A stretch of DNA of 32,000 nucleotides from Candidatus Methanophagaceae archaeon (GTDB lineage Archaea > Halobacteriota > Syntropharchaeia > Alkanophagales > Methanospirareceae): positions 1,082,728 to 1,114,727 of the forward strand of contig PQXB01000001.1 of NCBI GenBank assembly GCA_003194425.1, read 5' to 3'. Each line of letters opens with the position of its first letter. Positions within the stretch are counted from its first letter, which is position 1. Position numbers and translations under genes: made by a program. Below the pieces are notes generated by a model. The model worked only from the letters and a program-made list of their open reading frames with translations, was not told where the DNA came from and ran no database searches. Positions 717-31,895 of the stretch are shown piece after piece.

Positions 717-1721
717 TTAGTGGTGCTCGTACTTGCGCCGCCACCTCTCCACGCCCTCGTGCGTGTGCTCGTGAATGTGCAGGTGAATGTGTCCTCCCTC
801 GGTCTCAATCGTCCTCGTCAGCCCCGCCACCGCCTCGTCAAGTGAGAGCGGCAGGCTCTCGCAACTGAACCCGAAACACTGCAGCACCTCAAAAATCTTA
901 AACACATCCGGGACATCCAAATTGTTCTTTTTCAGCAACTCGCCGTCAAAAAAAATCTCCCACGGCGTCCCACTCTCAATCACCGTCCGGTTCAGCGCGT
1001 AAATCCGGTCCGCAAGCTCGGGAATCGCATTCACATCGTGCGTCGCAATCACCATCGTGATCCCCTCCCGCTCGTTCAGCCGGTTCAGAATTCCAATCAA
1101 CTCCGTCCTGCTTCGTGGGTCAAGGTTCGCAGTCGGCTCGTCAAGCACCAGAACCCGCGGCTCCATCGCCAAGACCGCCGCCAACGACGCCTTCTTCTTC
1201 TCCCCAAAGCTGAGGTGGTGCGGCGCCCGGTCCTCGTAGCCCGAAAGCCCGAGCAACGCCAACACCTTCCTCACACGCTCTCGCACCTCGCTCTCTTGCA
1301 GCCCTAAATTTATCGGACCAAACGCGACATCGTCAAAGAGCGTCGGCATAAACAACTGGTCGTCAGGGTCCTGAAAGACCATTCCCACCTCTTTCACCAC
1401 TTCTTCCCTTTTCATTTCGCCCAAAGTCCTACCGAACAATTTCACCTCGCCACCAGTCCCACGCAGCGTCCCGTTAAGGTGCAGCAAAAAAGTCGTCTTG
1501 CCCGCTCCGTTCGGTCCCACAATCACAACCCGCTCCCCCTCGTACACTTTCATATTTACCTTCTCCAACGCTTTCGAGCCGTCTGGGTAGGTGTAACTCA
1601 GGTCTCTTACAGTTACCGCTTCTGCTTTTCTTTTCTTCGCTTCTCTTTTCTTCACCTCTCTTTTCTTCACCTCTCTTTTCTTCGCCTCTCTTCTCTTCGC
1701 CTCTCTTTTCATTTTTCTCAA
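717..1721 (-). CDS. cbiO: ECF-type nickel/cobalt transporter ATPase (CbiO/NikO)
   Basis: Walker A GPNGAGKT, signature-like LSFGEKKK, Walker B VLVLDEPTANLD, H-loop ATHD. Lies directly downstream of CbiQ/CbiM genes. Has an N-terminal K-R-E-[AV]-K pentapeptide repeat and a C-terminal His-rich tail. Confidence 0.85.
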   Translation of the reverse strand: MRKMKREAKRREAKKREVKKREVKKREAKKRKAEAVTVRDLSYTYPDGSKALEKVNMKVYEGERVVIVGPNGAGKTTFLLHLNGTLRGTGGEVKLFGRTLGEMKREEVVKEVGMVFQDPDDQLFMPTLFDDVAFGPINLGLQESEVRERVRKVLALLGLSGYEDRAPHHLSFGEKKKASLAAVLAMEPRVLVLDEPTANLDPRSRTELIGILNRLNEREGITMVIATHDVNAIPELADRIYALNRTVIESGTPWEIFFDGELLKKNNLDVPDVFKIFEVLQCFGFSCESLPLSLDEAVAGLTRTIETEGGHIHLHIHEHTHEGVERWRRKYEHH

Positions 1722-1727
1722 ATCTTC

Positions 1728-2516
1728 TTAAACCCCCCTTGCAAAAACAAAAGAAACCGCGTGCAAAGCAACAGCGAAGCCGACGATGAGAACCGCGAGC
1801 GCGTAGTCCCTCGCCTGCATCTTGAACTCAACCAGCGTCTTAGGATTCCTGGTTCCTGTGTAGCCCCGCGACCGCAACGCCTGGTACACCCGCTCCCCGC
1901 GCTCGTAGCTCCTGACAAAGAGCGTTCCCAGTGCTTTTCCGACCGTTCTGAGCGCGTACAGGCTCGGGCTTGTCCGCAGTTTGAACCCCCTCGCTTCCAT
2001 CGCCCGCCAAGTCCGCTGAAACTCGACAACGAAGACGAAGATGTAGCGGTAGGAGAACATAAGCATTTGGACGAGCATATTCGGGACTTTCAGCCTGTCC
2101 AGTGCTTTTATCGTGAGGTCGAACCGCGTGGTCGCGACCACCGGCAGAACGAGGACGACCGCAGAGTAAGCCCGCAGAGCCACCAAAACCCCGTACTCCA
2201 ACCCCTCGTAAGTCATTTTTAGCGCGTAGAACCTGAAGATCTCGTCGCCCTTCACCGTGAAAGGCAGAATCAGGAGGAACGGGACGATGAAAAACGAGAC
2301 CCACTTAATGTGTTGTGAGACGAAGCGGAGTGGCAGTCTTGAGGCTGCGAGGAAGGCGAGAGAGCCGAGCAGACCCGCGAACGCCAACCTCAAGTCCTGA
2401 ACCAGAACGACCGAGAAGATGAGGCAGAGAAAAGCGACTATTTTCGCTCGTGGGTCGAACCTGTGAATTGGGGAGTCGAGCGACGAGAAAAGGTCGATTT
2501 CAGGGTACTCTACCAT
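1728..2516 (-). CDS. cbiQ: ECF transporter transmembrane T component (CbiQ/NikQ)
   Basis: Polytopic membrane protein starting MVEYPEIDLFSSLDSPIHRFDPRAKI (typical CbiQ N-terminus), with ER..RA..ARG-type cytoplasmic motifs (FQRTWRAMEARGF). Start moved to Met45 (2516). The 44-aa Arg-rich extension in the track overlaps the upstream gene and looks non-coding. Confidence 0.8.
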   Translation of the reverse strand: MVEYPEIDLFSSLDSPIHRFDPRAKIVAFLCLIFSVVLVQDLRLAFAGLLGSLAFLAASRLPLRFVSQHIKWVSFFIVPFLLILPFTVKGDEIFRFYALKMTYEGLEYGVLVALRAYSAVVLVLPVVATTRFDLTIKALDRLKVPNMLVQMLMFSYRYIFVFVVEFQRTWRAMEARGFKLRTSPSLYALRTVGKALGTLFVRSYERGERVYQALRSRGYTGTRNPKTLVEFKMQARDYALAVLIVGFAVALHAVSFVFARGV

Positions 2517-2574
2517 CGCACTTTTTCTTTTTGGAAAAGAAAACCAACCTGCACTAAAAGAAAAATTACAGATT

Positions 2575-3102
2575 TTATTTTTTCTCCTCCTCTTTTTTCT
2601 CGTGCCTCTTCTTCTTCTGCTTCCAGCCCGTGTACGCCGCCGCAGCACCTGCTAAGCCCACCAAATACCCAAATCCGGCAACGACCCTCGAGTACAACGG
2701 CATTTCCGCTTCTACACCCGCTCCTACGCCTCCTGCACCTGCACCCGCGACTGTCTGACTTAAGTTTATCGTTGTCTCTCCTCGGTGCCCTGGCATATGA
2801 ACCGCGTCAACAACCACCCTGTACTCTTTTACTCCGATTTTCGGCGGGAAACTGAACTTCCCCTCCTTGTCTGTCGTCCCTTCGAAATACAAATTCCCTG
2901 CCTCGTCGTAGACCCTCACCTCAGCGTCCCGAACAGGCGTTCCACCGCCGAAGTAAGCCTCAACCTCGATTTCGCTTATTTTATGAACCACGTGCATTCG
3001 GTGAGCACTCACCTCGCCTGTGCAGAAGCACGAAAGCACTAGCGCTAACCCTGACACCAGCAACACTACAACCGCAAAACCAAAAATATCTTCTCCTTTC
3101 AT
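2575..3102 (-). CDS. NikL-like accessory membrane protein: N-terminal TM anchor, carboxypeptidase-regulatory/transthyretin-like beta-sandwich, C-terminal TM
   Basis: N-terminal hydrophobic segment. EVRVYDEAGNLYFEGTTDKEGKFSF is a classic CarboxypepD_reg-like motif. C-terminal hydrophobic segment followed by a Lys-rich tail. Sits where CbiN/NikL lies, with a 4-nt overlap to the cbiM/nikM stop. Confidence 0.5.
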   Translation of the reverse strand: MKGEDIFGFAVVVLLVSGLALVLSCFCTGEVSAHRMHVVHKISEIEVEAYFGGGTPVRDAEVRVYDEAGNLYFEGTTDKEGKFSFPPKIGVKEYRVVVDAVHMPGHRGETTINLSQTVAGAGAGGVGAGVEAEMPLYSRVVAGFGYLVGLAGAAAAYTGWKQKKKRHEKKEEEKK

Positions 3103-3821
3103 CTTTTCCCTTCTCCTAAACTCCCTACCAATTCTGGCTTGACTTTCAGCAGAAAAACCACGACCGAGCCGACGACCACTGTCTCTACCAAAATTATCGG
3201 AACGTGCGCGACTGCGAGAGCGAGAGCAACAGCAGTAAAAGTCCCCTCCTCTCCGCCCGAGAGAATGAGCGAGACCGCGGTGAAGACCACAGCCAGAAAG
3301 ACCGCCAGCCCGCCTGCGAGAGCACCGAATATTCCCGCTACTCCTTTACTTCCTTCACTTCCTTTACTTCCTTCACTTCCTTCACTTCTTTCTCTCCCTT
3401 CTCTCCCCTCTCTTCGCCCCCGCGCCAACCTGCACCCGCCCTTGAAGACGGCAGAGGCGAGCAGTGCGGCGACGCCCATATTTGCTGTGTTTATTCCGAT
3501 TGTCGTGATTCCGCCATGCTGAAAGAGGACAGCCTGAAGCAGAACGCCGATAAAAATCGCAGGGTAGGCGAGAATTCCGAGCGTTACACCGAGCAGGCCG
3601 TTGAGCAGGAAATGCGCGCTCGTCGGTCCTACTGGGACGTGAACGAGGGAAGCGACGAAGAACGCCGCGGTCATCACCGACAACCGCGGAATCTCCTCCG
3701 CTTCCCACCCTTCCCCCTGCCGCTTGCTCCACCAGAGTGCTACTGCAAGCAGCACGCCGGTTACTGCCCACCCTGCCGCCAAAACAGGCAGGGACAAGAC
3801 CCCGTCCGAAATGTGCACCAT
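3099..3821 (-). CDS. cbiM: ECF substrate-capture component CbiM/NikM
   Basis: N-terminus M-V-HISDGVLS resembles the conserved MHIxEG/MHIPDG metal-binding N-terminus. Multi-TM protein. Initiation at the GTG at 3818 would give exactly MHISDG. Has a charged REG/SEG/SKG repeat insert in a loop. Confidence 0.85.
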   Translation of the reverse strand: MVHISDGVLSLPVLAAGWAVTGVLLAVALWWSKRQGEGWEAEEIPRLSVMTAAFFVASLVHVPVGPTSAHFLLNGLLGVTLGILAYPAIFIGVLLQAVLFQHGGITTIGINTANMGVAALLASAVFKGGCRLARGRREGREGRERSEGSEGSKGSEGSKGVAGIFGALAGGLAVFLAVVFTAVSLILSGGEEGTFTAVALALAVAHVPIILVETVVVGSVVVFLLKVKPELVGSLGEGKR

Positions 3822-5055: not shown

Positions 5056-6126
5056 CTAAAAGTACCCTTTTCTCCGTCTCCAAAGCAGGTAAATAAAGAA
5101 CGGAGCGCCGAAGAACGCGGTAATTATTCCAACAGGCATTTCACCTAAAACCCGCGCCAACGCGTCGGTCCACGCCAAAAAAATCGCCCCTACCAACGCG
5201 GACGCCGGGAAAAGAATTCGGTGGTCGGGACCGACGAGAATTCGCGTGATGTGTGGAATTATGAGACCCACGAACCCGATTGTTCCCACGAACGCGACTG
5301 CGGAAGCGGTAATGAACGCCGAGAGAATTAACAAGATTTTTTTCACCCCCTCCACATTTATGCCGAGCGTCTGCGCCGACTCCTCGCCGAGCAGCAGCGC
5401 GTTCAGGTCCTTCGCAAAAATGTAAATCAAGCCGAAGCAGAGTAGCACCGGCAGTGCCGTTACTTCCACCTCCCGCCACCTCGCTTTCCAGAGCCCGCCC
5501 ATCAGCCAGAAGAAGATGTTGTGCAAGTCCTTTCCTGCAACAAACATTAGAAACGAGAGAACCGCACCAAAGAACATCGAGACCGCGATTCCAGTGAGCA
5601 ACAAAGAGTCAACAGGAATTCTGCCCCCTTCTCCCGCTCCCGCTCCCGCTCCCCCGCCAGTCCGTGCGATGCTGTAAACCAGAAAAGTGGTAAAGACGGC
5701 GCCCAAGAACGCCAAAAACGGCGTAGTGTAGCCTCCTAAGAACCGCGGGACTACAGTCAGCGAGAGAGCAGCGCCGACCGCAGCCCCAGACGCAATCCCA
5801 ATTATGTACGGGTCTGCCATCGGATTTTTGAAGAGCCCCTGCAGCGTTGTCCCCGCGGTCGCCAACGCAAAACCAACCAACAACCCCAAAAAAATCCGCG
5901 GCAGCCTGATTTGGAAAATTATCGTCTCGTACTTCTGCGGAACCAAAGCCGCAGCGGTCTCGCAGAGCTGCAGTTTGCCGCAGAACAAAGCGACAATTTC
6001 TGACGGCGGCACGTAGACAGGACCGACTGCCGTCGTCAGCACCACCGTAACGGCTAAAATCGCAACCAAGTAAAGCAGCACCAGTCGCCAGTGAAGGAAC
6101 TTCTTAAATTTCATTTCAACAGCCAA
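5056..6126 (-). CDS. FecCD/BtuC-family ABC transporter permease (iron-chelate/corrinoid type)
   Basis: IRLPRIFLGLLVGFALATAGTTLQGLFKNPMADPYIIGIASGAAVG is the FecCD family signature region. Polytopic membrane protein. Contains a GGGAGAGAGEGG insert. Confidence 0.85.
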   Translation of the reverse strand: MAVEMKFKKFLHWRLVLLYLVAILAVTVVLTTAVGPVYVPPSEIVALFCGKLQLCETAAALVPQKYETIIFQIRLPRIFLGLLVGFALATAGTTLQGLFKNPMADPYIIGIASGAAVGAALSLTVVPRFLGGYTTPFLAFLGAVFTTFLVYSIARTGGGAGAGAGEGGRIPVDSLLLTGIAVSMFFGAVLSFLMFVAGKDLHNIFFWLMGGLWKARWREVEVTALPVLLCFGLIYIFAKDLNALLLGEESAQTLGINVEGVKKILLILSAFITASAVAFVGTIGFVGLIIPHITRILVGPDHRILFPASALVGAIFLAWTDALARVLGEMPVGIITAFFGAPFFIYLLWRRRKGYF

Positions 6127-8153
6127 CCAAAGAAAAACCTGAAGATTTTTTCAAATATTGACGGCTTTGGCGGCGGCGCGGCGGCTGCTCTACTTGAATT
6201 TGTCTGCTTGGCTGTCTGCTTTTGAGAATGCGAGGTCGTAGCAGCCGTGCTAAAGTTCGTCTGCGAAGGCGTTGCTCTTGGCGTCGTCGTAACCGCTACT
6301 CTTGGCGTCGGCGTTACCGCTGCTGCGGACGGTGTTGGTGCCGGTGTCGGAGTCGGCGAGCCTTCGGTCTCGTTTCTCGTTTCTAACGCGGCGCAAATTG
6401 CGAAAGTTCCAAACGACGGGCTTCTCGCTGTGTAAAAAACTTTCTCACTGCTTTCTCCTCCTGTCCCTGTCTCGCTCGTGTTCAGCTCTGCCCAAGTTTC
6501 GTTCTCGTCGTCGTAGCGGAACAAGGAGACGGTTTTAGCAGCGGCTTGGGGGTTTAGCGGTTTAGCAGCCAACCACGACTTACTCACGCTGAAGTTCAGC
6601 CGCACCCACTCCACGCTGCCTTCTAAATCCTCTGCAGAGAGGGCGAAGCATTTGTAAGTCGCGAGAGCGAGAGAAGAAGTAGGAGCAGGAGCAGAAGTAG
6701 AAGCAGGACCAGAAGTAGAAGCAGAAGTAGGAGCAGGCTGCTGAGCCGGTTCTACAGAAATGCTCGTAAATTTCACCTCTCCTTCCTCCCCGGCTTTTAC
6801 TCTAATCTCGTCCAGGCAGTCGTAGTCGTCTTCTCCTTCTAATTTCACAACCGCTTCTTCACCTGCTTCAACCGTCTTGTAGTTGTCGTCGTCCTCAACG
6901 GCAGCGAAAAAATCACTGAAATTCTGATGAACAATTTCTACTGCCTCCACCACTCTCGGACCTGGTCTTGATATTATGTCTCCGTCGATTACATAAACCC
7001 GATTATTCTTCACGGCGTCCAGATTCTTCAGCCGCTCGTCGTTCATTATTTGCTCGTACGCAATACTCATCTCGCCCATTCCGCTGTCGCAGATGATAAC
7101 TTGCGGATTCTTTTCAATGAGCTCCTCAAGGCTCATTATAAAATATCCTGTCTTGCCGTCTGCAGCCGCGATGTTTTTGCCGCCTGCGATTTCAATTATC
7201 TCGTCTGCAAATGTCTCCTTGCCCGCGGTAAAGAAGTCGCCGATGTTGTAAAACACCCTCGGTCTTTGCTCTTCTTCCAAGAACTCTGTCTTTTGCTCTA
7301 CCGCTCCTAACCTCCTTCTCAAATCTTCTAAAAGAGACAAAGCCTCCGCCTTGCGTTTCTCAATCGTGCCTACGACTTTTATGTGCCTAAAAATCGCCTC
7401 GATATTCTTCGGATGCATTGCATAAACCTTATAGCCCGACTCCCGCAGGTAATAAATCACACCAGCAGGGTTGCCGTGAGCACCAACGACCAAATCCGGC
7501 TCCAAATCCACAATCTTCTCGAAACTCGGCGTTGAATACCCGCCAATCTTTTTTATCTCTTTCACTTCTGGCGGGTAGTCGCAGAACTCGGTAACGCCGA
7601 CAACGCTCTCGCCTGCACCCACCGCGAATAAAACCTCGGTGCAGCTCGGCGCCATCGAAACCAGCCGCTCGGGTCGCTTTAAAAACCGCAGCTGGTAGTT
7701 TTCAAGCCCCTCCAGTTCACAAGCGTCGTTCTCCTCTCCTACTACCAGCCAGACCGAGAGATTCCAAGTCGCAGACACAGTTTCATTTTCTGCCTCTCCT
7801 ACACCTACTCCCACGACGCTGACATTGTAAATCCCGTACTCTTCGTCCTCAAAGCCAAGAGTAAAATCTGCACTCTCTCCTTCCGATTTTTTCGTCTCCT
7901 CTCCGTTCACCGACCACGACCACTCGTAAACCGTGCCTGCGCTAGAGTCTGAGGAGACGCGGAACTCCACCTCCTTGCTCTCTTCTACTCCGACTTCAAC
8001 TGAAAAAATAGTGGCGTCGTCTTCGGTCACGCTGTTCCATTTCGTGAGGTCGCTGCTTCCAAACGCTGTCCCGAGGACTGTCCCGAAGAGGGTCAGCGGA
8101 ATTAAGAGAGAGAGCAGAAGAAAAGCGACGAAGACTTTAATTTTTGCACTCAT
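6111..8153 (-). CDS. Multidomain cluster-A (BtuF/FhuD-like) substrate-binding protein: N-terminal Ig/PKD-like domain, binding domain, PGF-pre-PGF-like domain, Thr/Pro-rich tail
   Basis: Core RLVSMAPSCTEVLFAVGAGESVVGVTEFCDYP...DLVVG...NPQVIICDSG...NNRVYVIDGDIISRPGPRVVEAVE is typical of PF01497-type binding proteins. Overlaps the permease start by 16 nt. Confidence 0.8.
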   Translation of the reverse strand: MSAKIKVFVAFLLLSLLIPLTLFGTVLGTAFGSSDLTKWNSVTEDDATIFSVEVGVEESKEVEFRVSSDSSAGTVYEWSWSVNGEETKKSEGESADFTLGFEDEEYGIYNVSVVGVGVGEAENETVSATWNLSVWLVVGEENDACELEGLENYQLRFLKRPERLVSMAPSCTEVLFAVGAGESVVGVTEFCDYPPEVKEIKKIGGYSTPSFEKIVDLEPDLVVGAHGNPAGVIYYLRESGYKVYAMHPKNIEAIFRHIKVVGTIEKRKAEALSLLEDLRRRLGAVEQKTEFLEEEQRPRVFYNIGDFFTAGKETFADEIIEIAGGKNIAAADGKTGYFIMSLEELIEKNPQVIICDSGMGEMSIAYEQIMNDERLKNLDAVKNNRVYVIDGDIISRPGPRVVEAVEIVHQNFSDFFAAVEDDDNYKTVEAGEEAVVKLEGEDDYDCLDEIRVKAGEEGEVKFTSISVEPAQQPAPTSASTSGPASTSAPAPTSSLALATYKCFALSAEDLEGSVEWVRLNFSVSKSWLAAKPLNPQAAAKTVSLFRYDDENETWAELNTSETGTGGESSEKVFYTARSPSFGTFAICAALETRNETEGSPTPTPAPTPSAAAVTPTPRVAVTTTPRATPSQTNFSTAATTSHSQKQTAKQTNSSRAAAAPPPKPSIFEKIFRFFFGWLLK

Positions 8154-8878
8154 TCCAACTCAGCCTCTTTTATGTCTAAAAACCAATTTTCTCCAACCTC
8201 CCGCCTCTCCGCGTCTCCCACTCCCAGTTTCACCCGCCGCTTAAAAATCGGCCCGTCCACTACAAAGGTGTGGTACTCGCCAGACTCGCCGCACAAGTGG
8301 AAATCAAACTGCCTCAACTCCTCGATAAAACTTTCGTCCACTCTCCTCCCGAGCCACTCCTCTCTAACCCTCGTTGCGACCACGACCGCCTCAAATCCCG
8401 CCTCTACGAACTCTCGCAACGCCGCTTCGGGCTTGAGCCCCCAGAGCGGCAGAATTGGTTCTATTTCAAGCTCGCTGCAGACCCGTTCCACCCACTCTCT
8501 GTGCTCCGCCAGGTCAATGTCCCCGAAGACGCCTGCTTCCACTCCCACGCCGCCTGCTTCCACTCCCACGCCCTCCTTTCCCTCTTTTCCCTCTTTTCCT
8601 CTTCCGTCCTTCTTCAATTCCGCTACTGCCTGCTTGAATTTACTCTCGTAGCCCTCCCACGAGGCGTTCACCTGAAAAATCGGAATTCCCACCGCCTCTG
8701 ACTGCAGTCGGAGTAAAGAACTGCGAAGCCCGTGAGCCCGTTCTCTCTTCCCGTCCTCTGCCAAGAAATTCAAGAGACGAGTGACCTCAAAACCAGATTT
8801 CAACGCTTTGTAGCACGCCAAACAGCTTTCCTTTCCTCCGCTCCAAGAAACAAAAACTCTCTTCTTCTTCTCTTTCAT
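8150..8878 (-). CDS. PP-loop ATPase of the MJ0570/Dph6 (diphthine-ammonia ligase-like) family
   Basis: VFVSWSGGKESCLACYKA is the SGGKDS-type PP-loop. Length and remainder are consistent with ATP_bind_4. ATGA overlap with the binding-protein start. Contains a GKEGKEGKE + GVGVEAG x2 insert. Confidence 0.7.
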   Translation of the reverse strand: MKEKKKRVFVSWSGGKESCLACYKALKSGFEVTRLLNFLAEDGKRERAHGLRSSLLRLQSEAVGIPIFQVNASWEGYESKFKQAVAELKKDGRGKEGKEGKEGVGVEAGGVGVEAGVFGDIDLAEHREWVERVCSELEIEPILPLWGLKPEAALREFVEAGFEAVVVATRVREEWLGRRVDESFIEELRQFDFHLCGESGEYHTFVVDGPIFKRRVKLGVGDAERREVGENWFLDIKEAELE

Positions 8879-10001: not shown

Positions 10002-10088
10002 TCTCTGGTTTGTCTAATAATCTCTGGTTTAGTCTAATAATTAACTAATCAGCATAGTTTGTCTAATAATTAACTAATCAGCATAGTT
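10002..10088. repeat. Nested tandem duplications in the hbd/ribH divergent spacer (19/20-nt unit x2, then 28-nt unit at 29-nt spacing x2, sharing the core gtctaataa)
   Basis: tctctggttt(g/ag)tctaataa at 10002-10020 and 10021-10040. gtctaataattaactaatcagcatagtt at 10032-10059 and 10061-10088. Confidence 0.85.
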
Positions 10089-10564: not shown

Positions 10565-12445
10565 TTATCCCCCTCGCTTGAAATGTTCAGTTACCGCCGC
10601 CTTGAGCAGCCGAAGAACACTTAAGCTTAAGCTCCTCCTCGCCGCGGGCCACTCCAGCCCCTCCTTCTCGTTGATGACCGAGTTCAGCAGCAGGTCGAGT
10701 TTGGGCTTCAGTCGCATCATTTTTTGGTGCTGTGTTTGTGCAGTGCCGTCAGTGCCGTCAGTGCCGTCAGTGCCGTCGTTTAGTTTTTTTATTTCGTCGA
10801 TTTCAGAGGTGAGCTCGACTGCGAGCCGTATTTTCTCCGCAGTCACCTCGGACGAAGCCCGGTCAACCAGCCCGCACTCCGCCTTCAACTCGTTCAGCCT
10901 TAACCCTGCCTTGTAAGTACAGTCCACGATTTCGCCCCGCGTCAGCCACTCGGTCTCGTAGTTCAGGGCGTACTTCCAACTCGGCGAGAGCATCGCCGCT
11001 CGGTACTGCTCGAGCGACTTAAAGAGGATTTTGTAGCCGAACTTCTCGGGGTTCTCGTAGGCGACGCAGCCGGGGTCAAGGAACGGCGAGTAAGCGAGAA
11101 TAAACGGAACCACCCGCTTCCCACTCCCGTACTTCTTCATTAAACGACCGCACCACTCAATGGTCTGCATAACAGATTCGCAGGTCTGAAAAGGCAAGCC
11201 AATCATAAAAAAAAGGTCGAACTTCTTGCAGCCCGCCTGCAGCGCCCATTTTAGGTTCTCCTCAATCTCGCGGTTCTTGTACCGCTTCCCGACCGCTGCT
11301 CGTATTTTCTCGTCGTGGCTGTCAGGGGAGATTTCAAAGTTGAAGTTCTTGACCGACCCTGCCACGAGTTCAAAATACTCTCTCGGGTTCGGAACAGTGT
11401 CAAAGAGTTCAAAGACGAGTTGGTTCTCGAAATTCGCTCTCTTCTTTTTCAACCGCGCCAAGACGGTACGGGCGTATTTTTCGCCGGCTTGGCGGAGGTC
11501 GCCGATTACGAAAATTGGGGCTCTCGTGTAGTTCGTGGTTCGGAGAATGTCCGCAGCGACTAACTCGGGGTCGCGAAACGCCGGCTTCCTGCGGTTGCAG
11601 TAGCCCGCGAGTGCGTTCCGAGACCCGCCGCAGAAGACGCAGTTGTGAACACAGCCGCGGCAGGTTAGCACGGGCGTGATCGGGTAGTCCAGCCACTCGT
11701 GCGACGACCAGCCGTGAAACGGGATTAAACTTTTGAGGTCTCGGTATTTCAGCGCCGACTTGAAGACTGGGAAGTAGTTGTTCACGGACTTGTTCAGGCG
11801 GGCAGGGACGTGCGTGAGTGGATTTACACGCACCTTAACCTCGCCACTGCTCACCTTAACCTCGCCACTGCTCACCTTAACCTCGCCACTGCTTTCGTCT
11901 TCCTCCTCCTTCCAAACGAGGTTCGGGATTTTAGCGAACTCGAAATCGTGCGGACGCCGACGCCGAACCTGTAAAAGCGTCTTCATAAGTTGCAGCAGTG
12001 GCTCTTCGGTAGAGTCGCCCCGCAGAATAAAATCCACCTCCGGACAGCGAATCAACTCCTCGTAGAAGTAGGACGCGGAGAAACCCCCGAAAATCACGGG
12101 CGTGCTCCCGTGGTACCTCTTGCAAATTTTCGCTACCTCGAGGCTACCCTGTGCGTGCGGCAGCCAGTGAAAGTCAATCCCAAACGCCCCTCTCGGCTTG
12201 AGTCGCCGCACCATTTTCTCAGCGTCAAACTCCTCGCTGCCGAGCATTCTCGCCGCTAAATTCACTATTCGCACCCTCACTCCGTTCCGCTCCAAATGCT
12301 CGAGCAAAGAGAAAAATCCGAGTGGGTACATCTCGAAGACGGGCGTTGAGGGGACGCCGTCTGCAATCGGGCCGTACAAAATCGCTCGCTTCCTGAAGTC
12401 GTAGACCGCGGGTGCGTGCAGCAGAATTAAATCCGGGTTGCTCAT
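10565..12445 (-). CDS. B12-binding-domain / radical SAM enzyme, substrate unknown
   Basis: N-terminal cobalamin-binding-like domain (LILLHAP...VRIVNL). Radical SAM cluster motif C-VHN-C-VF-C (CRGCVHNCVFCGG). Two perfect in-frame tandem inserts: SSGEVKV x3 and GTD x4. Confidence 0.75.
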   Translation of the reverse strand: MSNPDLILLHAPAVYDFRKRAILYGPIADGVPSTPVFEMYPLGFFSLLEHLERNGVRVRIVNLAARMLGSEEFDAEKMVRRLKPRGAFGIDFHWLPHAQGSLEVAKICKRYHGSTPVIFGGFSASYFYEELIRCPEVDFILRGDSTEEPLLQLMKTLLQVRRRRPHDFEFAKIPNLVWKEEEDESSGEVKVSSGEVKVSSGEVKVRVNPLTHVPARLNKSVNNYFPVFKSALKYRDLKSLIPFHGWSSHEWLDYPITPVLTCRGCVHNCVFCGGSRNALAGYCNRRKPAFRDPELVAADILRTTNYTRAPIFVIGDLRQAGEKYARTVLARLKKKRANFENQLVFELFDTVPNPREYFELVAGSVKNFNFEISPDSHDEKIRAAVGKRYKNREIEENLKWALQAGCKKFDLFFMIGLPFQTCESVMQTIEWCGRLMKKYGSGKRVVPFILAYSPFLDPGCVAYENPEKFGYKILFKSLEQYRAAMLSPSWKYALNYETEWLTRGEIVDCTYKAGLRLNELKAECGLVDRASSEVTAEKIRLAVELTSEIDEIKKLNDGTDGTDGTDGTAQTQHQKMMRLKPKLDLLLNSVINEKEGLEWPAARRSLSLSVLRLLKAAVTEHFKRGG

Positions 12446-20291: not shown

Positions 20292-20339
20292 TTTTCCTCC
20301 GCCTTTTTCCCTCCTCTTCTCTTTTCTGCCTGCTCTTTT

Positions 20340-20420
20340 TTCTTCTTCTGCCCTCGCCCTTTTTTGACTTGTTCTTACCGAGGGCGTTTACTTCTTTCTA
20401 CCTTTCTCTATAAAAAAGTT
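20340..20420. repeat. Repeat A, left copy (81 nt, ~77/81 identical to 21331-21411); contains a 7-bp-stem hairpin and a TATA-like tataaaaa
   Basis: Hand alignment at offset 991. Inverted repeat gccctcg (20350-20356) / cgagggc (20379-20385). Confidence 0.85.
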
Positions 20421-22460: not shown

Positions 22461-22530
22461 TAGTTGAAATTTCTTTAAAAATAGTTGAAATATTCCAAAA
22501 AAGAGGGAATAAAGGGAGAGAAAGAGGGAA

Positions 22531-23886
22531 ATGGAGGGGAGGAGGGGAAAATTGGAACGAAGAAAGATTTTCGCGTTGGGGTTGGCGATTGGAATTCTTG
22601 CGTTGTGCGTCTCGGTAACCGCGTTTTACACTGCCTCCGTGCCTGTAGCCGCGGAGGCGGACGGGGAAGCAGAGGGAGTAGAGGAAGGAGCAGAGGGAGG
22701 AGAAGGAGGAGCAGAGGGAGGAGAAGGAGAGGTTAGAGAAGGGCAAGAAGAAATCCAAACACACGCACCCCTCACACTCAAAATCTTCCACGCGGGCAGT
22801 TTAGCCGTGCCTTTAAAAGAGGCGGAGAAAGAATTTGAGGCGTTGAATCCGAACGTGGACGTGCGGCGCGAGTCGATGGGCAGCATCGCCGCGATTAGGC
22901 AGGTAACCGACGTGGGGAAGCAGGGAGACGTGGTCGTGTCCGCGGACTACACGCTTATTCCAGAAATGATGTACCCCGAGTACGCGGACTGGGTTGTGAG
23001 GTTCGCGACGAACGACCTCGTGCTCGCCTACAACCCAGAGCAGGGGAAGAGCAGGTTCGCGGACGAAATCACGGCTGACAACTGGTACGAAATTCTTCGC
23101 AGGGACGGCGTCGTCTTCGGGTTCTCAAATCCGAACCTCGACCCTTGCGGCTACCGGGCTGTGATGGTCTGTCAGCTCGCGGAACTGCACTACGGCGACG
23201 CCTGGATTTTTGACGACCTGATTCTCAACAACACCGCGATTACGGTGAGCGAGGAGAGGGAGGAGGACAAAAAAAAGGTGTTGGACGAAGAAAGGGTGTT
23301 TTTAATAAGGACGCCCGAAGACCTGCAGCCAAAGACCGAGAAGGTGTGCATTCGACCGAAGTCTGTTGAACTCGTGGCGTTGGTCGAGGCAGGCGGGCTT
23401 GACTACGCGTTTGAGTACCGCAGCGTCGCGGTTCAGCACAACTTGGCGTTCGTGGACTTGCCAGAGCCGGTAGATTTGAGCAGCGTTGAGTTCGCGGACG
23501 AGTACAAAAAAGTACGGCTAGAGACTGCGGACGGCAAGACGAAGACAGGGAAGCCGATTGTTTACGGGATTACGGTTCCGAAGGACGCATATTCTGAAAA
23601 TCCAGAGCTTGGACTGGAGTTCGTGAAGTTCCTCGTGGGCGAGGCGGGGCAGAGGATTTTTGAAGAGCAGGGTCAGCCGCCACTTGTGCCTGCTGTGGGT
23701 AGTGCTGTGGGTAGTAGTAACTTGCCGGAGGAGTTGAGGGATTTAGTCGTGCTTAAGACCGCGGAGCAGCAGTCGGCAACGCCGCCGACAACACCGACGC
23801 CGGCAACACCAGGCTTCGAGGCGGTCTTCGCAGTTGCTGGCTGGTTAGCAGTAGCAGAGGCTTACCTCTTGCTGCGGAAGAAGTAA
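22531..23886 (+). CDS. wtpA: Tungstate/molybdate ABC transporter substrate-binding protein WtpA, with PGF-CTERM anchor
   Basis: LKIFHAGSLAVPLKE...NPNVDV..ESMGSIAAIRQVTDVGKQGDVVVSADYTLIPEMMYPEYADW...FGFSNPNLDPCGYRAVMVCQLAE closely parallels archaeal WtpA as I recall it. C-terminus TPGFEAVFAVAGWLAVAEAYLLLRKK. Confidence 0.85.
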   Translation: MEGRRGKLERRKIFALGLAIGILALCVSVTAFYTASVPVAAEADGEAEGVEEGAEGGEGGAEGGEGEVREGQEEIQTHAPLTLKIFHAGSLAVPLKEAEKEFEALNPNVDVRRESMGSIAAIRQVTDVGKQGDVVVSADYTLIPEMMYPEYADWVVRFATNDLVLAYNPEQGKSRFADEITADNWYEILRRDGVVFGFSNPNLDPCGYRAVMVCQLAELHYGDAWIFDDLILNNTAITVSEEREEDKKKVLDEERVFLIRTPEDLQPKTEKVCIRPKSVELVALVEAGGLDYAFEYRSVAVQHNLAFVDLPEPVDLSSVEFADEYKKVRLETADGKTKTGKPIVYGITVPKDAYSENPELGLEFVKFLVGEAGQRIFEEQGQPPLVPAVGSAVGSSNLPEELRDLVVLKTAEQQSATPPTTPTPATPGFEAVFAVAGWLAVAEAYLLLRKK

Positions 23887-25877: not shown

Positions 25878-26849
25878 ATGAATCTCATCTCGATTTTTGA
25901 CCTCTCGGGTGCGGAAATAGAAGCGCTAGTAGAGAAAGCGGAAGAACTGAAGGCTGAGCGGAAGAAGGGCGTAGAGGGCGTAGAGGGCGTAGAGGGCGTA
26001 GAGGGTGTAAGCGGAAGAGCGAGAAAGGACTTGGAAGGCAGGACGTTGGCACTGATTTTCGAGAAGCCGTCTACTCGCACCCGCGTCTCGTTTGAGGTTG
26101 CGGGGCTGGAGTTGGGCGGGAATGTGTTGAGTCTGAATTGGAACGAACTGCAGTTGGGCAGGGGCGAGCGGGTGCAGGAGACCGCGAAAGTGCTTTCGGC
26201 TTACGTGGACGCTGTTGTGCTGCGGGCATTTCGGCACAGCACGGTGCAGGAGTTCGCGAGACACGCTTCGGCTTCGGTGCCTGTAGTGAACGGGCTGACG
26301 GATTTGGAGCACCCGTGTCAGACGTTGGCGGATTTGATGACGATAAAAGAACGGAAGGGAAGGCTGGCGGGCGTTAAAGTGGCGTGGGTCGGAGATGGGA
26401 ACAATGTCTGCAATTCGCTAATCGGCGGTGCAGCACTTACGGGAATGGAGATTCGCGTGGCGTGCCCGAGAGGCTACGAGCCTGACGAGGGCGTGGTAGA
26501 GAAAGCGAAGGCGTGTGGTTGTGAAGTTCTCGTAACCGATGATGCGGAGGAGGCTGTTGCTGGCGCCGATGTTTTGTACACCGATGTGTGGGTCTCGATG
26601 GGCGACGAGGAGGCGAGCGAGCAGAGGAAAAGGGATTTACAAGACTTTCAAATAAACGCGGATTTGGTGCGGGCTGCGAAGGAGGACGCGATTGTGCTGC
26701 ACTGTATGCCTGTGCACTTGGGCGAGGAGATTACGGAGGCGGTGCTGAACAGCGACCGAGCGGTGATTTTTGAGCAGGCGGAGAACAGGCTGCACGCACA
26801 GAAGGCGCTACTGCACAAACTTTTTAGAAAAAAACAGAAATCTTTTTAA
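25878..26849 (+). CDS. argF: Ornithine carbamoyltransferase
   Basis: FEKPSTRTRVSFE, HPCQ.LAD, TDVWVSMG, HCMP. Start set to MNLISIFDLSG (25878). GVE x4 insert. Confidence 0.9.
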   Translation: MNLISIFDLSGAEIEALVEKAEELKAERKKGVEGVEGVEGVEGVSGRARKDLEGRTLALIFEKPSTRTRVSFEVAGLELGGNVLSLNWNELQLGRGERVQETAKVLSAYVDAVVLRAFRHSTVQEFARHASASVPVVNGLTDLEHPCQTLADLMTIKERKGRLAGVKVAWVGDGNNVCNSLIGGAALTGMEIRVACPRGYEPDEGVVEKAKACGCEVLVTDDAEEAVAGADVLYTDVWVSMGDEEASEQRKRDLQDFQINADLVRAAKEDAIVLHCMPVHLGEEITEAVLNSDRAVIFEQAENRLHAQKALLHKLFRKKQKSF

Positions 26850-26866: not shown

Positions 26867-26910
26867 ATATTTAAAGACCTGAAAATATTTAAAGACCTGA
26901 AAACCTGAAA
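26867..26910. promoter_or_regulatory. 18-nt tandem duplication (x2 plus a partial copy) carrying a TATA-like atatttaaag upstream of cdhC
   Basis: atatttaaagacctgaaa at 26867-26884 and 26885-26902, then acctgaaa. Confidence 0.55.
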
Positions 26911-26941: not shown

Positions 26942-28468
26942 ATGGCAGCGGCAGAAGGAGAGGAGAAGTTCCCGTTTGAGATAAACCCGATGTACGAGGG
27001 CGAGCGGGTGCGGAAGGCGGGAATGTTTGTGGAGCTGGCCGGGCAGAGCAAGCCGGGGTTTGAGCTGGTTCTCTTTGAGCCCGACCCTGCGAAGATAAAA
27101 GACGGCGAGGTTAGTTTAGTGGGGCCGGACTTGGAGGAGATGCAGGAGGGCGGGAACTACGCTTACGCAATGATTTACAGGGTCACGGGCGAGCAGCTCG
27201 AGAAGGACCTTGAGGCGGTTATTGAACGGCGGAACCACGAGTACCAGTCCTACATTCAGGGCTACATGCACCTGAACCAGCGTGCTGAGATTTGGGTGCG
27301 GATAAGCAAGGACGCGGTGAGGAAGGGGTTGAAGTCGCTGAAGCAGATTGGACGGGCGACGATTCAGCTCTTCAAGTCCGAACTGCCGTTCATCGAGAAA
27401 ATGGCAGTGGAGTTCGTTACCGACGAGGCGGAGGTGGAGAAGCGGTTAGAGGAGGCGAGCCGGATTTACGAGGCGCGGGACGCGAAGGCACGGGGGCTGC
27501 ACGACGAGGATGTGGACGAGTTTTACCAGTGCACGCTTTGTCAGTCGTTTGCACCGACGAACGTCTGCGTTGTCTCGCCGGACAGGTTTGCGTTGTGCGG
27601 TGCAATGAGTTGGTTCGACTCGCGGGCGGCGGCTCGGGTTGACCCCGAGGGACCGAACGCACCAATTCCAAAAGGCGAGTGTCTTGACCCTGTCGGTGGG
27701 GAGTACACGGGCGTTAACGAGGCTGCGGTTCGGCTCTCGAGCGGGGAGTACGACTCGATAAAACTGCACTCGTTCTTTGAGAAGCCGCACACGAGTTGCG
27801 GCTGTTTCGAGGTTGCGGGGTTCTACATTCCCGAAGTCGACGGCGTCGGCTGGGTGCACCGGGGCTCGAGGGTTTCTGACACGCCGATTGGACTGCCTTT
27901 TTCGACGATCGCAGGCTCGGTCGGCGGCGGTAAGCAGGTGCAGGGTTTCCTCGGAATCGGAATTCAATATTTTTACAGCTCAAAATTTATCCAAGCAGAC
28001 GGCAGCTGGCGACGCGTTGTCTGGATGGCTTCGGACTTGAAGGAGCGTGTTGCGGAGGCTATTCCCGCGGAGATGCGAGACCGGATCGCGACCGAGAAGG
28101 ATGTGAAGGATGTAGGAGAGCTGCGGGAATTCTTGCAAAAAGTGGGGCACCCAGTCGTGGAAGGCGTTGTCCGCGCTGTTGACGGCGTACGTGTGACCGA
28201 GGGCTGGGCAGTGGAGGAAGAGGAAGAGGAAGAGGAAGAGGTAGAAGAAGCAGCAAAGGTAGAGGAGGGACCTGTTGAAGTGCCGCAGGCACAGGCAGCG
28301 GCTCAAGTTCCGCTTGCGTCTGCGTCCGCGTTTGTGCCGCCACTGGCGGGGGCAGGTGCGTTCGGCGTTGCGGGTGGAGTGGCTGGTTCTGCACCGATAA
28401 AAATAATTTTGAAGGACGCGGAAATCAAAATCGGGAAAATAATCGTGAAGCGGAAAGAGGGGAAGTAG
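26942..28468 (+). CDS. cdhC: Acetyl-CoA decarbonylase/synthase complex subunit beta (A-cluster, acetyl-CoA synthase)
   Basis: FPFEINPMYEGERVRK... and CTLCQSFAPTNVCVVSPDR..LCGA.SW.D.RAA (A-cluster Cys ligands). Has a C-terminal poly-Glu / Ala-rich extension. Confidence 0.9.
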   Translation: MAAAEGEEKFPFEINPMYEGERVRKAGMFVELAGQSKPGFELVLFEPDPAKIKDGEVSLVGPDLEEMQEGGNYAYAMIYRVTGEQLEKDLEAVIERRNHEYQSYIQGYMHLNQRAEIWVRISKDAVRKGLKSLKQIGRATIQLFKSELPFIEKMAVEFVTDEAEVEKRLEEASRIYEARDAKARGLHDEDVDEFYQCTLCQSFAPTNVCVVSPDRFALCGAMSWFDSRAAARVDPEGPNAPIPKGECLDPVGGEYTGVNEAAVRLSSGEYDSIKLHSFFEKPHTSCGCFEVAGFYIPEVDGVGWVHRGSRVSDTPIGLPFSTIAGSVGGGKQVQGFLGIGIQYFYSSKFIQADGSWRRVVWMASDLKERVAEAIPAEMRDRIATEKDVKDVGELREFLQKVGHPVVEGVVRAVDGVRVTEGWAVEEEEEEEEEVEEAAKVEEGPVEVPQAQAAAQVPLASASAFVPPLAGAGAFGVAGGVAGSAPIKIILKDAEIKIGKIIVKRKEGK

Positions 28469-29060: not shown

Positions 29061-29066
29061 AAAACT

Positions 29067-29892: not shown

Positions 29893-29893
29893 G

Positions 29894-29971: not shown

Positions 29972-30038
29972 AAAGGGAACTAAACATAAACAAAATAGAG
30001 AGGAAAAAGAGAAAAGGAGAGTGAGTTAGGATGGAGAA

Positions 30039-30542
30039 TGAGTCAAGACAACGGACAGAGTGGGCAACCCCCCGCTTGGGTGCCATAGGCAAAGGTGGGA
30101 GCGTGCTACAAGAAAGGGTGGCACCAACTGTGGAACTACCCTTTAGAACTGCTGCTCATAACAATTGTAGGCTTCGTCATTTCTCCCCCCTCTCACGGCT
30201 TCTCTGCTGCTAAAGAGGTGGAGGGAGCGGGGGCTTATTTTCTCTCCATTTTTGCTTTAGCCTACACGCTTCTGCTTGTCTGGCCCGTTGGCTACGGCAT
30301 TTCGTTCGCCTACCTCAAAGCAGCCAGAGGCGAGCAGCCGAGTGTCAAAGATGTGTTTGACGCGCTTTGACTGTCTTTTTCATCGGCTTGCTGGGAATTC
30401 CTGTTATCTTGGCAGGACTGCTCTGCTTCGTTGTCGGAGTTGTTGTGGCACTTGTGTGGATTCAAATCGCCTCCGCTTCGCTCTACCTCGCAGTAAGCGA
30501 AGAAAAAAGTAAAGATTTAAAAAGGCAGCCAGACAAAGAGTA
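30039..30542 (+). pseudogene. Decayed integral-membrane protein gene (pieces in three frames)
   Basis: Frame a: MSQDNGQSGQPPAWVP-stop, ending just after a C-homopolymer. Frame b: track ORF 30095..30370 (..KKGWHQLWNYPLELLLITIVGFVI...ISFAYLKAARGEQPSVKDVFDAL-stop). Frame c: FIGLLGIPVILAGLLCFVVGVVVALVWIQIASASLYLAVSEEKSKDLKRQPDKE-stop at 30542. Confidence 0.45.
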
Positions 30543-30548
30543 AGCGAA

Positions 30549-31895
30549 ATGGCGAAGAAAATAACCTCAGCGGACCTGGAGGAGCGGCTGGAGAAGCACG
30601 AAGTGGTGGAGTTGGATGGGGTAGAGATAAAGGGCGATTTGGAGTTTGAATTGTCCGCGGCGGGCGGTGTGGCTGTTCCTCCTTCAGTGCTTCAGCAGGC
30701 ACTGCAGTCCGTCTTGGGCGTGCAGTCGTTGGCGCAGGTGGCTCAGGCAGCACTGCAGTCCGTCTTGGGCGGCGGCGTGCAGGCAGGTACAGGCGAGACA
30801 GAGACAGCGAGGAAAATAGAGGCGCAGGAGTTAGCGACGGCGAGGTTTGAAGTTGCGAAGGCGAAGTGGGTGGGGAAGGTAGAAGAGGTTACACTTGGTG
30901 CTACTTCGTCGGACGGTGGCACGAGGGAGAAAGTGGTGAAAATAGGGGGCGAGAAATCGCTGCCGTTCTACAACTTCGACCACAAAATGCCGCACGCACC
31001 AGTGATTTCGGTGGACTGCTTTGACATCCCAATTCCGCTTGCGAAGGCGGTGCGGGGGCACTACGAGGATGTGATGCAGGACCCGGGGGAGTGGGCGAAG
31101 AAGAATGTGCGTGAGTTCGGCGCGGATATGGTCACGATTCACCTAATCAGCACCGACCCGCTGATAAACGACACGCCGGCGCGGGAGGCGGCGAAGACTG
31201 TTGAAGAGGTGCTGCAGGCTGTAAAAGTTCCGATTGTCATCGGCGGGTCGGGGAACCCAGAGAAAGACCCCGCGGTCTTGGAGGCTGCTGCGGAGGCTGC
31301 CGAAGGCGAGCGGTGTCTAATCGCGTCTGCGAACTTGAATATGGACTACAAGCGAATAGCGAACGCGGCAAAGGAGCACGGACACACAATTCTCTCGTGG
31401 ACGCAGCTCGACATAAACGCGCAGAAGACGCTGAACCGCTACCTCTTCAAACTCGGCGTGCCACGGGAAGACATCGTGATTGACCCGACGACCGCGGCAC
31501 TGGGCTACGGTCTGGACTACGCGTTCACTAACATCGAGCGGATGCGAATCTCGGCGCTGAAAGGGGACACTGATTTGGCGTTCCCGATTTCCTGCGGCAT
31601 TACGAACGCGTGGGGTGCGAGGGAGGCGTGGATGAAGAATTCGCCGATTGCCGAAGACTCAGACTGGGGACCGGCGGCTTACAGGGGTCCTTTGTACGAA
31701 ATTATGACTGGGCTGACTCTGGGGGTTGCGGGCGGGGACTTGTTTATGATGATGCATCCCAAGGCTGCGGCTGCGGTCAAGCGCGTGACGCAGATGCTGT
31801 TTGGTGCTGCTGCGAAGGAGGGGGCGGAGGCGGGGGCGGAAGAAGAGGGAAGGAAGATAAAAGTAGAGGATTGGGTAAGTTGGGGCGGTCGGTGA
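30549..31895 (+). CDS. cdhD: Acetyl-CoA decarbonylase/synthase complex subunit delta (corrinoid/Fe-S protein small subunit)
   Basis: WVGKVEEVTLGA...VKIGGEKSLPFYNFD...ADMVTIHLISTDP...PIVIGGSGNPEKDP..LE.AAE...DPTTAALGYG.. is typical CdhD/AcsD. The N-terminal region carries a 51-nt imperfect in-frame duplication. Confidence 0.9.
   Translation: MAKKITSADLEERLEKHEVVELDGVEIKGDLEFELSAAGGVAVPPSVLQQALQSVLGVQSLAQVAQAALQSVLGGGVQAGTGETETARKIEAQELATARFEVAKAKWVGKVEEVTLGATSSDGGTREKVVKIGGEKSLPFYNFDHKMPHAPVISVDCFDIPIPLAKAVRGHYEDVMQDPGEWAKKNVREFGADMVTIHLISTDPLINDTPAREAAKTVEEVLQAVKVPIVIGGSGNPEKDPAVLEAAAEAAEGERCLIASANLNMDYKRIANAAKEHGHTILSWTQLDINAQKTLNRYLFKLGVPREDIVIDPTTAALGYGLDYAFTNIERMRISALKGDTDLAFPISCGITNAWGAREAWMKNSPIAEDSDWGPAAYRGPLYEIMTGLTLGVAGGDLFMMMHPKAAAAVKRVTQMLFGAAAKEGAEAGAEEEGRKIKVEDWVSWGGR

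Follow-up and report, generated by a model that had tools for sequence, protein, structure and literature searches.

Short local tandem duplication filtered by selection as the probable source of repeat arrays in core genes and spacers of an ANME-1a archaeon

We analyzed a 32,000-nt stretch of DNA from Candidatus Methanophagaceae archaeon (GenBank assembly GCA_003194425.1, contig PQXB01000001.1, positions 1,082,728 to 1,114,727 of the forward strand; hereafter, the window), in which short tandem repeat arrays occur within genes for central enzymes and transporters, in spacers and across stop codons. These arrays are very probably the product of ongoing, genome-wide tandem duplication of short local segments in one species of anaerobic methanotrophic archaea (ANME) of the ANME-1a group, filtered by selection. 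The arrays were in large excess over expectation and were built from local sequence. Those inside coding sequences (CDSs) preserved the reading frame and lay at tolerant positions of the proteins, copy numbers differed between strains, and related lineages lacked them. A preliminary description, prepared from the sequence alone, had listed many of the coding arrays and likened them to the low-complexity inserts of Plasmodium.

Array density in the window and in related genomes

Tandem Repeats Finder (TRF) was run over the window and overlapping rows were merged. Arrays with a score of at least 50 are referred to as stringent and those with a score of at least 30 as lenient. We found 27 stringent arrays, which covered 4.65% of the window (~46 repeat bp per kb) and consisted of head-to-tail copies with 78–100% matches, several of them perfect. 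Unit lengths were about 6–51 nt, mostly 9–24 nt. When triplets were shuffled within 1-kb bins, 100 shuffled windows contained 0.14 stringent arrays on average (maximum 2), and at the lenient threshold the 54 observed arrays compared with 6.2 ± 2.5 in the shuffled windows. Except for cdhD, all arrays of the preliminary description were recovered by TRF at, or a few bases from, the positions given there, and about 11 arrays that were intergenic or spanned stop codons were absent from it. The 51-nt duplication that it had noted in cdhD is present, but is older and diverged (Table 1). Its statement that most proteins contain inserts was somewhat generous: a stringent array was present in 11 of the 28 genes of the window, and a lenient one, some chance matches included, in 20 of the 28.

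With regard to species identity, NikO of the window was identical to PXF51787.1 (“Methanophagales archaeon”) and ~99% identical to OYT65467.1 (“ANME-1 cluster archaeon”), and GuaA was 74–82% identical to proteins of ANME-1 metagenome-assembled genomes (MAGs). The longest open reading frames of ArgF and GuaA had no exact database match, and that of ArgF begins upstream of the annotated start. A probable identity for the species is “G37 ANME-1a” from Guaymas Basin. The draft genome of G37 ANME-1a, from a 37°C enrichment, comprises 1.40 Mb in 5 scaffolds with 52% guanine plus cytosine (GC) and is the smallest ANME genome listed (PMC5947290).

The comparison set consisted of 80 loci fetched through guaA (1.19 Mb) and scanned with the same TRF settings, 29 of which were from ANME-1 and close relatives. 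The window had 0.84 arrays per kb, the 80 loci 0.052, and the 29 ANME-1 and close-relative loci 0.043, i.e. about 20 times fewer than the window. Thus, repeat density is raised when measured uniformly against these loci. The nearest other lineages also lacked the inserts in ArgF (at most 79% identity), NikO (81%), YcaO (73–80%) and GuaA (74–82%), which supports the earlier proposal of a lineage-specific mutational process. Besides guaA, the loci of other ANME-1 shared with the window only a few hits (PP-loop ATPase, ycaO and cdhC) and were not syntenic with it. High GC content was insufficient to produce arrays: L018, L019, L022 and L024, at 53–55% GC, had 0–2 arrays each. The window itself had 53% GC, compared with 40–47% in other ANME-1 loci. 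Coding-strand purine loading was strong (58% purine), and GC skew tracked gene orientation.

Orthologues also indicate where the units came from. NikO orthologues start with MKREAITV, and the NikO unit is therefore an amplified local sequence, with MKREA expanded to MKREAKRREAKKREVKKREVKKREAKKRKAEAVTV in the window. Similarly, ArgF orthologues have KEGV-KARKD where the window protein has KKGVEGVEGVEGVEGVSGRARKD, the (GVE)n array arising from the ancestral KEGV, and in GuaA 17 orthologues have short loops in place of GVRGVRG and VSVSVSNSNSNS. In these alignments, the repeat units derive from sequence already present at each site and are unrelated between loci. Longer ArgF hits from other ANME-1 (P0024, P0030, P0105 and P0002) were rejected as comparable arrays, being start-codon misannotations or large assembly-type duplications. 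Two of these homologues from other metagenomes, P0024 and P0002, had large internal duplications (28 aa N-terminal and about 160 aa mid-protein), which have the appearance of pseudogenes or assembly errors in other organisms. In guaA of the cold-seep ANME-1 genomes L004, L005, L006 and L026, an odd peptide, ISxYRA(C/R)G..GQSPT, was inserted at two positions, which differ between genomes. This peptide resembles the product of a small piece of mobile DNA inserted into the CDS and is unrelated to the tandem duplications.

Copy number among strains

Independent assemblies of the same species were compared with the window. L081 and L082 are JGI metagenome contigs that are 99.4% and 98.7% identical to it, L085 and L087 are loci of the NCBI MAG GCA_026133975.1 (about 98% identical), and L086 is an ENA contig of the same species. 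Further JGI, ENA and Logan proteins fell in the same 90% clusters. All same-species assemblies carried arrays, at 0.89–0.97 per kb. When the window was compared with L081 and L082, all four indels were whole-unit changes in arrays (12 nt at 14636 and at 16107, 15 nt at 18329). Among the 15 indels relative to L085, 13 were gains or losses of tandem copies of adjacent sequence, of 1–19 nt. Those in CDSs were multiples of 3 except for a 1-nt change in the last GT2 codons, and those in spacers were of 1, 3, 3, 16 and 19 nt. The left half of the window showed the same tandem-copy pattern against L086 and L087. In 15 assemblies, NikO had 316, 321, 326, 331 or 336 aa, corresponding to 3–7 array copies, and was at least 98% identical elsewhere. 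Members of the ArgF cluster (319–331 aa) differed only by (GVE)n copies, the number of which differed in six members, and by a strain-specific 15-nt duplication encoding LLHKL. The sister strain also had 8 more arrays in 15.7 kb flanking the window region on both sides. The earlier suggestion of recent, ongoing duplication is thus borne out: with few exceptions, indels between strains add or remove whole units or tandem copies, and the lengths of NikO and ArgF vary.

These data also bear on whether the arrays could be artefacts that arose when a metagenome-derived genome was sequenced or assembled. The source is indeed of this kind, and tandem repeats are a known cause of assembly error (PMC6868369). 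However, every array is at most 101 nt long, shorter than a typical short read, and inter-assembly differences are clean whole-unit changes within 98–99% identical sequence. We consider an artefact next to impossible because independent JGI, NCBI, ENA and Logan assemblies reproduce the same arrays, neither absent nor collapsed.

Selection, mechanism and alternatives

The preliminary description had noted unit lengths divisible by 3 inside genes. In the window, this held for all 16 arrays located wholly inside CDSs (periods of 9, 12, 15, 18, 21 or 24 nt), which would have a probability of about 2e-8 were a third of all periods multiples of 3. By comparison, it held for 6 of the 11 arrays in spacers or straddling stop codons, whose periods were 12, 13, 14, 18, 18, 21, 21, 23, 24, 29 and 41 nt, five of them (13, 14, 23, 29 and 41 nt) not multiples of 3. 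Array density was about 2.6 per kb in non-coding and 0.58 per kb in coding DNA, a difference of about 4.5-fold. The higher density outside CDSs, the periods there that are not multiples of 3 and the straddled stop codons argue for a mutational rather than an adaptive origin. For example, the array at the guaA stop codon repeats the last three codons together with the stop, and L081 and L082 have three copies; all that lies past the first stop is invisible to the protein. This is the pattern expected if DNA of any kind is duplicated and frame-shifts are then removed by selection, and it disagrees with protein function as the driver. At lower stringency, exact 8-nt x2 matches in CDSs also exceeded triplet shuffles (about 11 of period 7, 8 or 10 compared with 2.3 expected; positions 6170, 6540, 8197, 13342, 14913, 18946, 20884 and 22533). 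The guaA match at 13342 encodes a GRK motif conserved in most orthologues, so these short-period matches are probably codon-composition effects and not frame-shifting duplications. Accordingly, some lenient TRF hits in CDSs with period 7–8 x2, such as that at guaA 13342, were rejected as real duplications.

Placement in the proteins was restricted as well. Among 317 repeat-encoded residues, 87% were G, E, K, V, R, A or S (G 20%, E 19%, K 13%; N 0.3%) and 2.5% were F, I, L, M, W, Y or C, compared with about 25% for the latter in window proteins overall. In an AlphaFold2 model of ArgF (mean predicted local distance difference test score, pLDDT, 83), insert residues 34–46 had pLDDT below 50 and formed a loop between helix 11–33 and strand 56–61. 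The inserts of the PP-loop ATPase and of the GT2 protein aligned to gaps in PDB 3rjz and 5mlz, respectively. These three cases agree with the surface-loop placement that the preliminary description had proposed to check. In the B12-binding radical S-adenosylmethionine (B12-radical-SAM) enzyme, (SSGEVKV)3 corresponds to residues 185–205, between the B12-binding domain (35–147) and the Radical_SAM domain (261–432), and other CDS arrays were in N- or C-termini or in P/T/S-rich linkers.

It could be argued that the repeats are adaptive, selection having favored charged or flexible low-complexity linkers for solubility, adaptation to temperature or pressure, condensates or evolvability. The inserts are indeed alike in composition (G/E/K-rich), the NikO and ArgF sites are kept in all sampled strains, and the IVYWREL index of the window proteome is thermophile-like, predicting about 71°C. 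However, a tolerance filter alone would give the same composition. Besides the distribution of arrays and periods described above and the duplication of stop codons where no protein is affected, the units are unrelated between loci and derived from sequence at the site, and copy number drifts freely among near-identical strains. An adaptive origin therefore appears improbable. Thermophily as a driver was rejected: G37 ANME-1a is from a 37°C enrichment despite the 71°C estimate, and the thermophilic Alkanophaga loci L022 and L024 were almost array-free.

Alternatively, the duplication rate could be ordinary, with weak selection or a small effective population size in a reduced 1.4-Mb genome letting slippage products accumulate. 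This would be in line with the small genome of the probable match, G37 ANME-1a (PMC5947290), and with Ehrlichia ruminantium, which also has a small genome and lineage-specific, active repeat expansion and contraction between strains (PMC10710844). In E. ruminantium, however, the process targets non-coding DNA and long spacers (PMC10710844), whereas the window is 87% coding (13% non-coding) and many of its arrays are in housekeeping genes. Against an ordinary rate, the ratio of non-synonymous to synonymous polymorphism (pN/pS) between strains was 0.11–0.14, which indicates efficient purifying selection, and no frame-shifting array was found in a CDS. Arrays in spacers and past stop codons should be near neutral in any lineage, yet are about 20 times rarer in other ANME-1 loci, which points to a higher input rate and not to weaker removal. 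We therefore find relaxed selection an unlikely explanation.

Birth of tandem repeats by short duplication and slippage is well known, and for this species the data directly support two steps, duplication of a local segment and later gain and loss of whole units. The first step, on segments of about 6–51 nt, would act on any DNA, including genes, spacers, stop codons and recently acquired islands; whole units would then be gained or lost through replication slippage; and selection would purge changes that disrupt the reading frame or the fold, so that the survivors within genes would be in-frame hydrophilic arrays in loops, linkers and termini. The raised duplication rate would result from a lineage-specific change in replication or repair, the most likely target being lagging-strand maturation (of the Okazaki-fragment/FEN1 type) or slippage control. 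Microhomology-mediated tandem duplication, described in Schizosaccharomyces pombe and Escherichia coli, is stimulated in yeast mutants of rad27/FEN1, and it has been suggested to seed most tandem repeats (bioRxiv 10.64898/2026.02.28.708716). It shares with the window short, local and reversible duplications of tens of nt that seed multi-copy repeats, and its own feature is a link to Okazaki-fragment maturation (bioRxiv 10.64898/2026.02.28.708716). The window units (6–51 nt) fall within the range of about 5–100 bp of rad27/FEN1-type duplication.

Junctions were examined for microhomology. In 23 clean perfect arrays (period of at least 9 nt), it was 0 nt in 8, 1 nt in 5, 2 nt in 1 and at least 3 nt in 9, whereas 12.9, 6.5, 2.4 and 1.2, respectively, were expected by chance. 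This strict count ruled out a reading without microhomology. In addition, homopurine–homopyrimidine tracts may be more prone to duplication: 3–4 of the 11 non-CDS arrays were homopurine or homopyrimidine tracts, compared with 5.4% of non-coding 20-mers, and this excess outside CDSs hints at an intrinsic sequence bias.

Several observations weigh against the proposed process or its link to replication. The purine richness of CDS arrays could in part come from selection for E, K and G codons and not from mutational bias. In the small sample of 15 clean two-copy duplications, microhomology was 0 nt in 6, 1 nt in 4, 2 nt in 1 and 3–4 nt in 4; that is, at least 3 nt was found in 4 of 15 events, against about 0.8 by chance (about 5%), whereas arms of at least 3 nt are found in 50–70% of typical microhomology-mediated events (bioRxiv 10.64898/2026.02.28.708716). 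Microhomology is thus mixed, above chance and well below the typical proportion in both sets (4/15 and 9/23), and array density far above that of related genomes is a further difference from this type. No replication or repair gene was present in the window or the fetched flanks, and a motif scan of the fetched ANME-1 loci gave no match to Fen1, PCNA, NucS, RadA, Hel308, MutS/L, PolB, PolD or Mre11. The term genome-wide is itself an extrapolation from about 48 kb of contiguous sequence.

There may also be a contribution from a second route that needs little microhomology, or none at all, for instance one in which staggered breaks are filled in and joined again. From paired-nickase and end-joining studies, tandem duplications are known to result when staggered ends are filled in. 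If this were the main source, the arrays would be repair scars, left after the ends at staggered double-strand breaks, or at paired nicks, had been filled in and end-joined with duplication of the overhang. The 0–1 nt microhomology in 10 of the 15 clean two-copy duplications and the broad range of unit sizes (7–41 nt) are compatible with this idea, but the 3–4 nt microhomology in four of the others is above chance, and no end-joining gene turned up, although no search of this genome for such genes was made. Duplications of the HELQ/BRCA type, at 100 bp to 10 kb, belong to another size class (PMC8654963). On balance, an origin mainly as repair scars is rather unlikely. The same size difference (units of at most 51 nt) ruled out loss of HELQ/Hel308 or a HELQ/BRCA1-type origin. 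Transposon excision footprints were rejected because there is no fixed length: the clean perfect arrays had periods of 9, 11, 12, 14, 15, 16, 18, 19, 21 and 23 nt, and periods of TRF arrays reach 24, 29 and 41 nt. Phase-variable contingency loci, with units of 1–8 nt, were rejected as well; stringent CDS units are 9–24 nt, strain variants stay in frame, and since the frame is always kept the arrays do not represent phase variation. Contingency loci are concentrated in surface, restriction-modification or virulence genes, and the arrays lie instead in ArgF, GuaA, CdhC/D, radical-SAM enzymes, the PP-loop ATPase and transporters.

Within the preferred explanation of ongoing local duplication, a more specific and tentative possibility is that the species is a natural “duplication mutator”, in which a heritable, lineage-specific replication or repair change seeds 7–41-nt tandem duplications genome-wide. 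Candidates would be flap processing, the hand-off between polymerase, PCNA and ligase, or an unusual fill-in end-joining route. Two other anomalies of the species, a GC content about 9 points higher than in other ANME-1 and the smallest genome among them, may go back to the same change.

Table 1. Positions of repeat arrays in the window and their differences in other strains. Strand is that of the gene; a dot marks arrays in spacers or across stop codons.
Feature	Position	Strand	Repeat	Source	Difference from window
NikO/CbiO N-terminus (MKREAKRREAKKREVKKREVKKREAKKRKAEA)	1619..1710	-	15 nt x5.5 at 1629-1710	TRF	
175-aa CbiN-like protein, C-terminal K/E tail	2578..2610	-	15 nt x2.1	TRF, translation	
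CbiM (REG/SEG/SKG)	3342..3415	-	9 nt x6.7 at 3342-3401 plus 9 nt x2.6	TRF	Copy number differs in L086, L087
DUF4198 gene stop codon	3865..3915	.	21 nt x2.5	TRF	16 nt shorter in L086, L087
FecCD permease (GAGAGAG)	5631..5653	-	6 nt x3.8, perfect	TRF	One unit fewer in L086, L087
Binding protein, C-terminal P/T-rich region	6275..6321	-	24 nt x2.0	TRF	
Binding protein, P/T/S linker	6671..6736	-	18 nt x3.0 (6671-6724)	TRF	One 18-nt unit more in L086, L087
PP-loop ATPase (GKEGKEGKEGVGVEAGGVGVEAG)	8530..8603	-	21 nt x2.0 perfect + 9 nt x3.8	TRF	18 nt fewer in L087
Intergenic, upstream of ribH	10002..10088	.	29 nt x2.1 (and 19 nt x2); period not divisible by 3	TRF	18 nt different in L087
B12-radical-SAM enzyme near C-terminus, (DGT)n, outside Pfam domains	10741..10777	-	9 nt x4.1, perfect	TRF	One unit fewer in L087
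B12-radical-SAM enzyme, (SSGEVKV)3	11831..11893	-	21 nt x3.0, perfect	TRF	
mobB stop codon	12466..12506	.	13 nt x3.2; period not divisible by 3	TRF	
Intergenic, directly upstream of guaA	13001..13047	.	14 nt x3.4	TRF	
GuaA, GVRGVRG	13405..13425	+	9 nt x2.3, perfect	TRF	
GuaA, VSVSVSNSNSNS	13534..13575	+	6-nt repeats	TRF, translation	
guaA stop codon in four copies (EPC*KPC*KPC*KPC*)	14636..14683	+	12 nt x4.0, perfect		See text
361-aa methyltransferase-like gene, stop codon	15933..15969	.	18 nt x2.1	TRF	
361-aa protein beside ycaO, (GGGS)n	16103..16148	-	12 nt x3.8	TRF	One unit more in L082, L085
361-aa protein beside ycaO, (GKEK)n, largest array of the window	16641..16741	-	12 nt x8.6	TRF	One unit more in L085
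GT2 dolichol-phosphate mannose synthase-like protein, (QRALG)n	18324..18380	+	15 nt x3.8	TRF	One unit more in L082; 9 nt more in L085
Intergenic	20313..20365	.	24 nt x2.3	TRF	
Hypothetical gene, stop codon	21631..21714	.	41 nt x2.0; period not divisible by 3	TRF	
Intergenic, upstream of wtpA	22461..22502	.	21 nt x2.0	TRF	
WtpA, behind membrane anchor, G/E/A-rich	22668..22729	+	21 nt x3.0	TRF	
WtpA, weakest of the set	23265..23300	+	18 nt x2.0, 83% match	TRF	
WtpA, AVGSAVGS	23691..23715	+	12 nt x2.1, perfect	TRF	
ArgF, (GVE)n	25966..26009	+	9 nt x4.9	TRF	See text
Intergenic, argF-cdhC	26867..26903	.	18 nt x2.1, perfect	TRF	
CdhC C-terminal region, poly-Glu	28214..28266	+	18 nt x2.9	TRF	6 nt more in L085
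cdhC stop codon	28447..28496	.	23 nt x2.2; period not divisible by 3	TRF	
CdhD, older duplication	30687..30771	+	34-nt copies at 85% identity, 51 nt apart		

The genes of the window include an energy-coupling factor (ECF)-type Ni/Co transporter (nikO/cbiO, cbiQ, the CbiN-like protein and cbiM), a DUF4198 protein, and an ATP-binding cassette (ABC) permease with its binding protein. Also encoded are a PP-loop ATPase, a 3-hydroxyacyl-CoA dehydrogenase, ribH, the B12-radical-SAM enzyme, mobB, guaA, ycaO, the 361-aa uncharacterized protein, a SPASM radical-SAM enzyme, the GT2 glycosyltransferase, wtpA, prefoldin beta, purD, argF, cdhC and cdhD. At 14691-18197, ycaO is followed by the same-strand 361-aa protein (two coding arrays and no Pfam hit) and then by the SPASM enzyme, which may form a peptide or McrA-modification cluster. 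Positions 19046-22500 form a variable region of low GC (about 41%), in which small hypothetical genes accompany those for a secreted protein and a PIN-domain protein. The region can be aligned only piecewise with sister strain L085, which has extra PIN and DUF2283 genes there. As it holds two of the arrays (20313-20365 and 21631-21714), variable or acquired DNA is subject to the duplication process as well. Another low-GC block, of about 1.8 kb (28469-30291), lies between cdhC and cdhD and splits the carbon monoxide dehydrogenase/acetyl-CoA synthase (CODH/ACS) operon; L085 has 259 nt instead. The block encodes a ThsB-like TIR-domain protein at 28596-29060 (Pfam PF08937, 6.6e-15; PADLOC ThsB, 7e-11) and a 184-aa protein without a family hit, and no ThsA partner was seen. 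It is likely a strain-specific defence islet.

Relation to known repeat systems and implications

The phenomenon belongs to the known class of repeats that arise by duplication plus slippage, i.e. variable-number tandem repeats (VNTRs) and minisatellites. Four testable features of coding VNTRs were found here: near-perfect head-to-tail copies, whole-unit polymorphism between strains, units of local sequence, and frame-preserving units in CDSs. To our knowledge, coding repeats of prokaryotes are normally confined to surface or repeat-domain proteins; coding VNTRs number few per genome and are mostly in surface, virulence or repeat-domain proteins. In contrast, the window has unrelated units in core enzymes and transporters (CODH/ACS subunits, GuaA, ArgF and the ECF/ABC systems), at about 0.8 arrays per kb. 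It is therefore distinct from the usual prokaryotic cases in density, heterogeneity of units and spread across core enzymes, as opposed to surface or contingency genes.

Archaea are reported to rank last among all domains in short tandem repeat (STR) density, with 1.02 STR bp per kb, and the highest reported density is that of Plasmodium falciparum (PMC12699852). Most prokaryotes have 0–3 satellites per Mb, and the richest archaeon, Methanosarcina vacuolata, has 89 (PMC6749651). Like the species studied here, Methanosarcina is an archaeal lineage unusually rich in short tandem arrays, which were attributed to replication anomalies (PMC6749651). However, it belongs to another order and has a large genome, and the survey reports no in-frame inserts across core enzymes (PMC6749651). 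Extrapolated from the window, arrays of about 4 or more copies would number roughly 250–300 per Mb, ~3 times the value for Methanosarcina, although definitions differ.

The comparison with Plasmodium was apt for placement but not for sequence type. The inserts of P. falciparum are likewise hydrophilic, polymorphic and lineage-specific and lie in surface loops of conserved enzymes. They are, however, A/T-driven runs rich in Asn and Lys, whereas the units of the window, from an archaeon with 53% GC, are 9–24 nt long, purine-rich and encode G, E and K, with no counterpart of the Asn runs. No report of the trait in ANME-1 was found in the literature searched.

A single uncultured methane-oxidizing lineage thus has polymorphic in-frame inserts in its central enzymes, and its sister lineages have almost none. 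For studies of this species, one consequence is that protein lengths and cluster assignments shift with repeat copy number, which should be considered in annotation. At the same time, the arrays provide ready-made strain markers of high variability for the environmentally important ANME-1 population of Guaymas-type hydrothermal sediments, and the inserts provide a proteome-wide map of insertion-tolerant sites in conserved folds. More generally, the lineage represents a natural experiment and a route to what sets the rate of tandem duplication in archaea. If the species is indeed a duplication mutator, its comparison with repeat-poor relatives could reveal the factor by which archaea normally keep tandem duplication in check.

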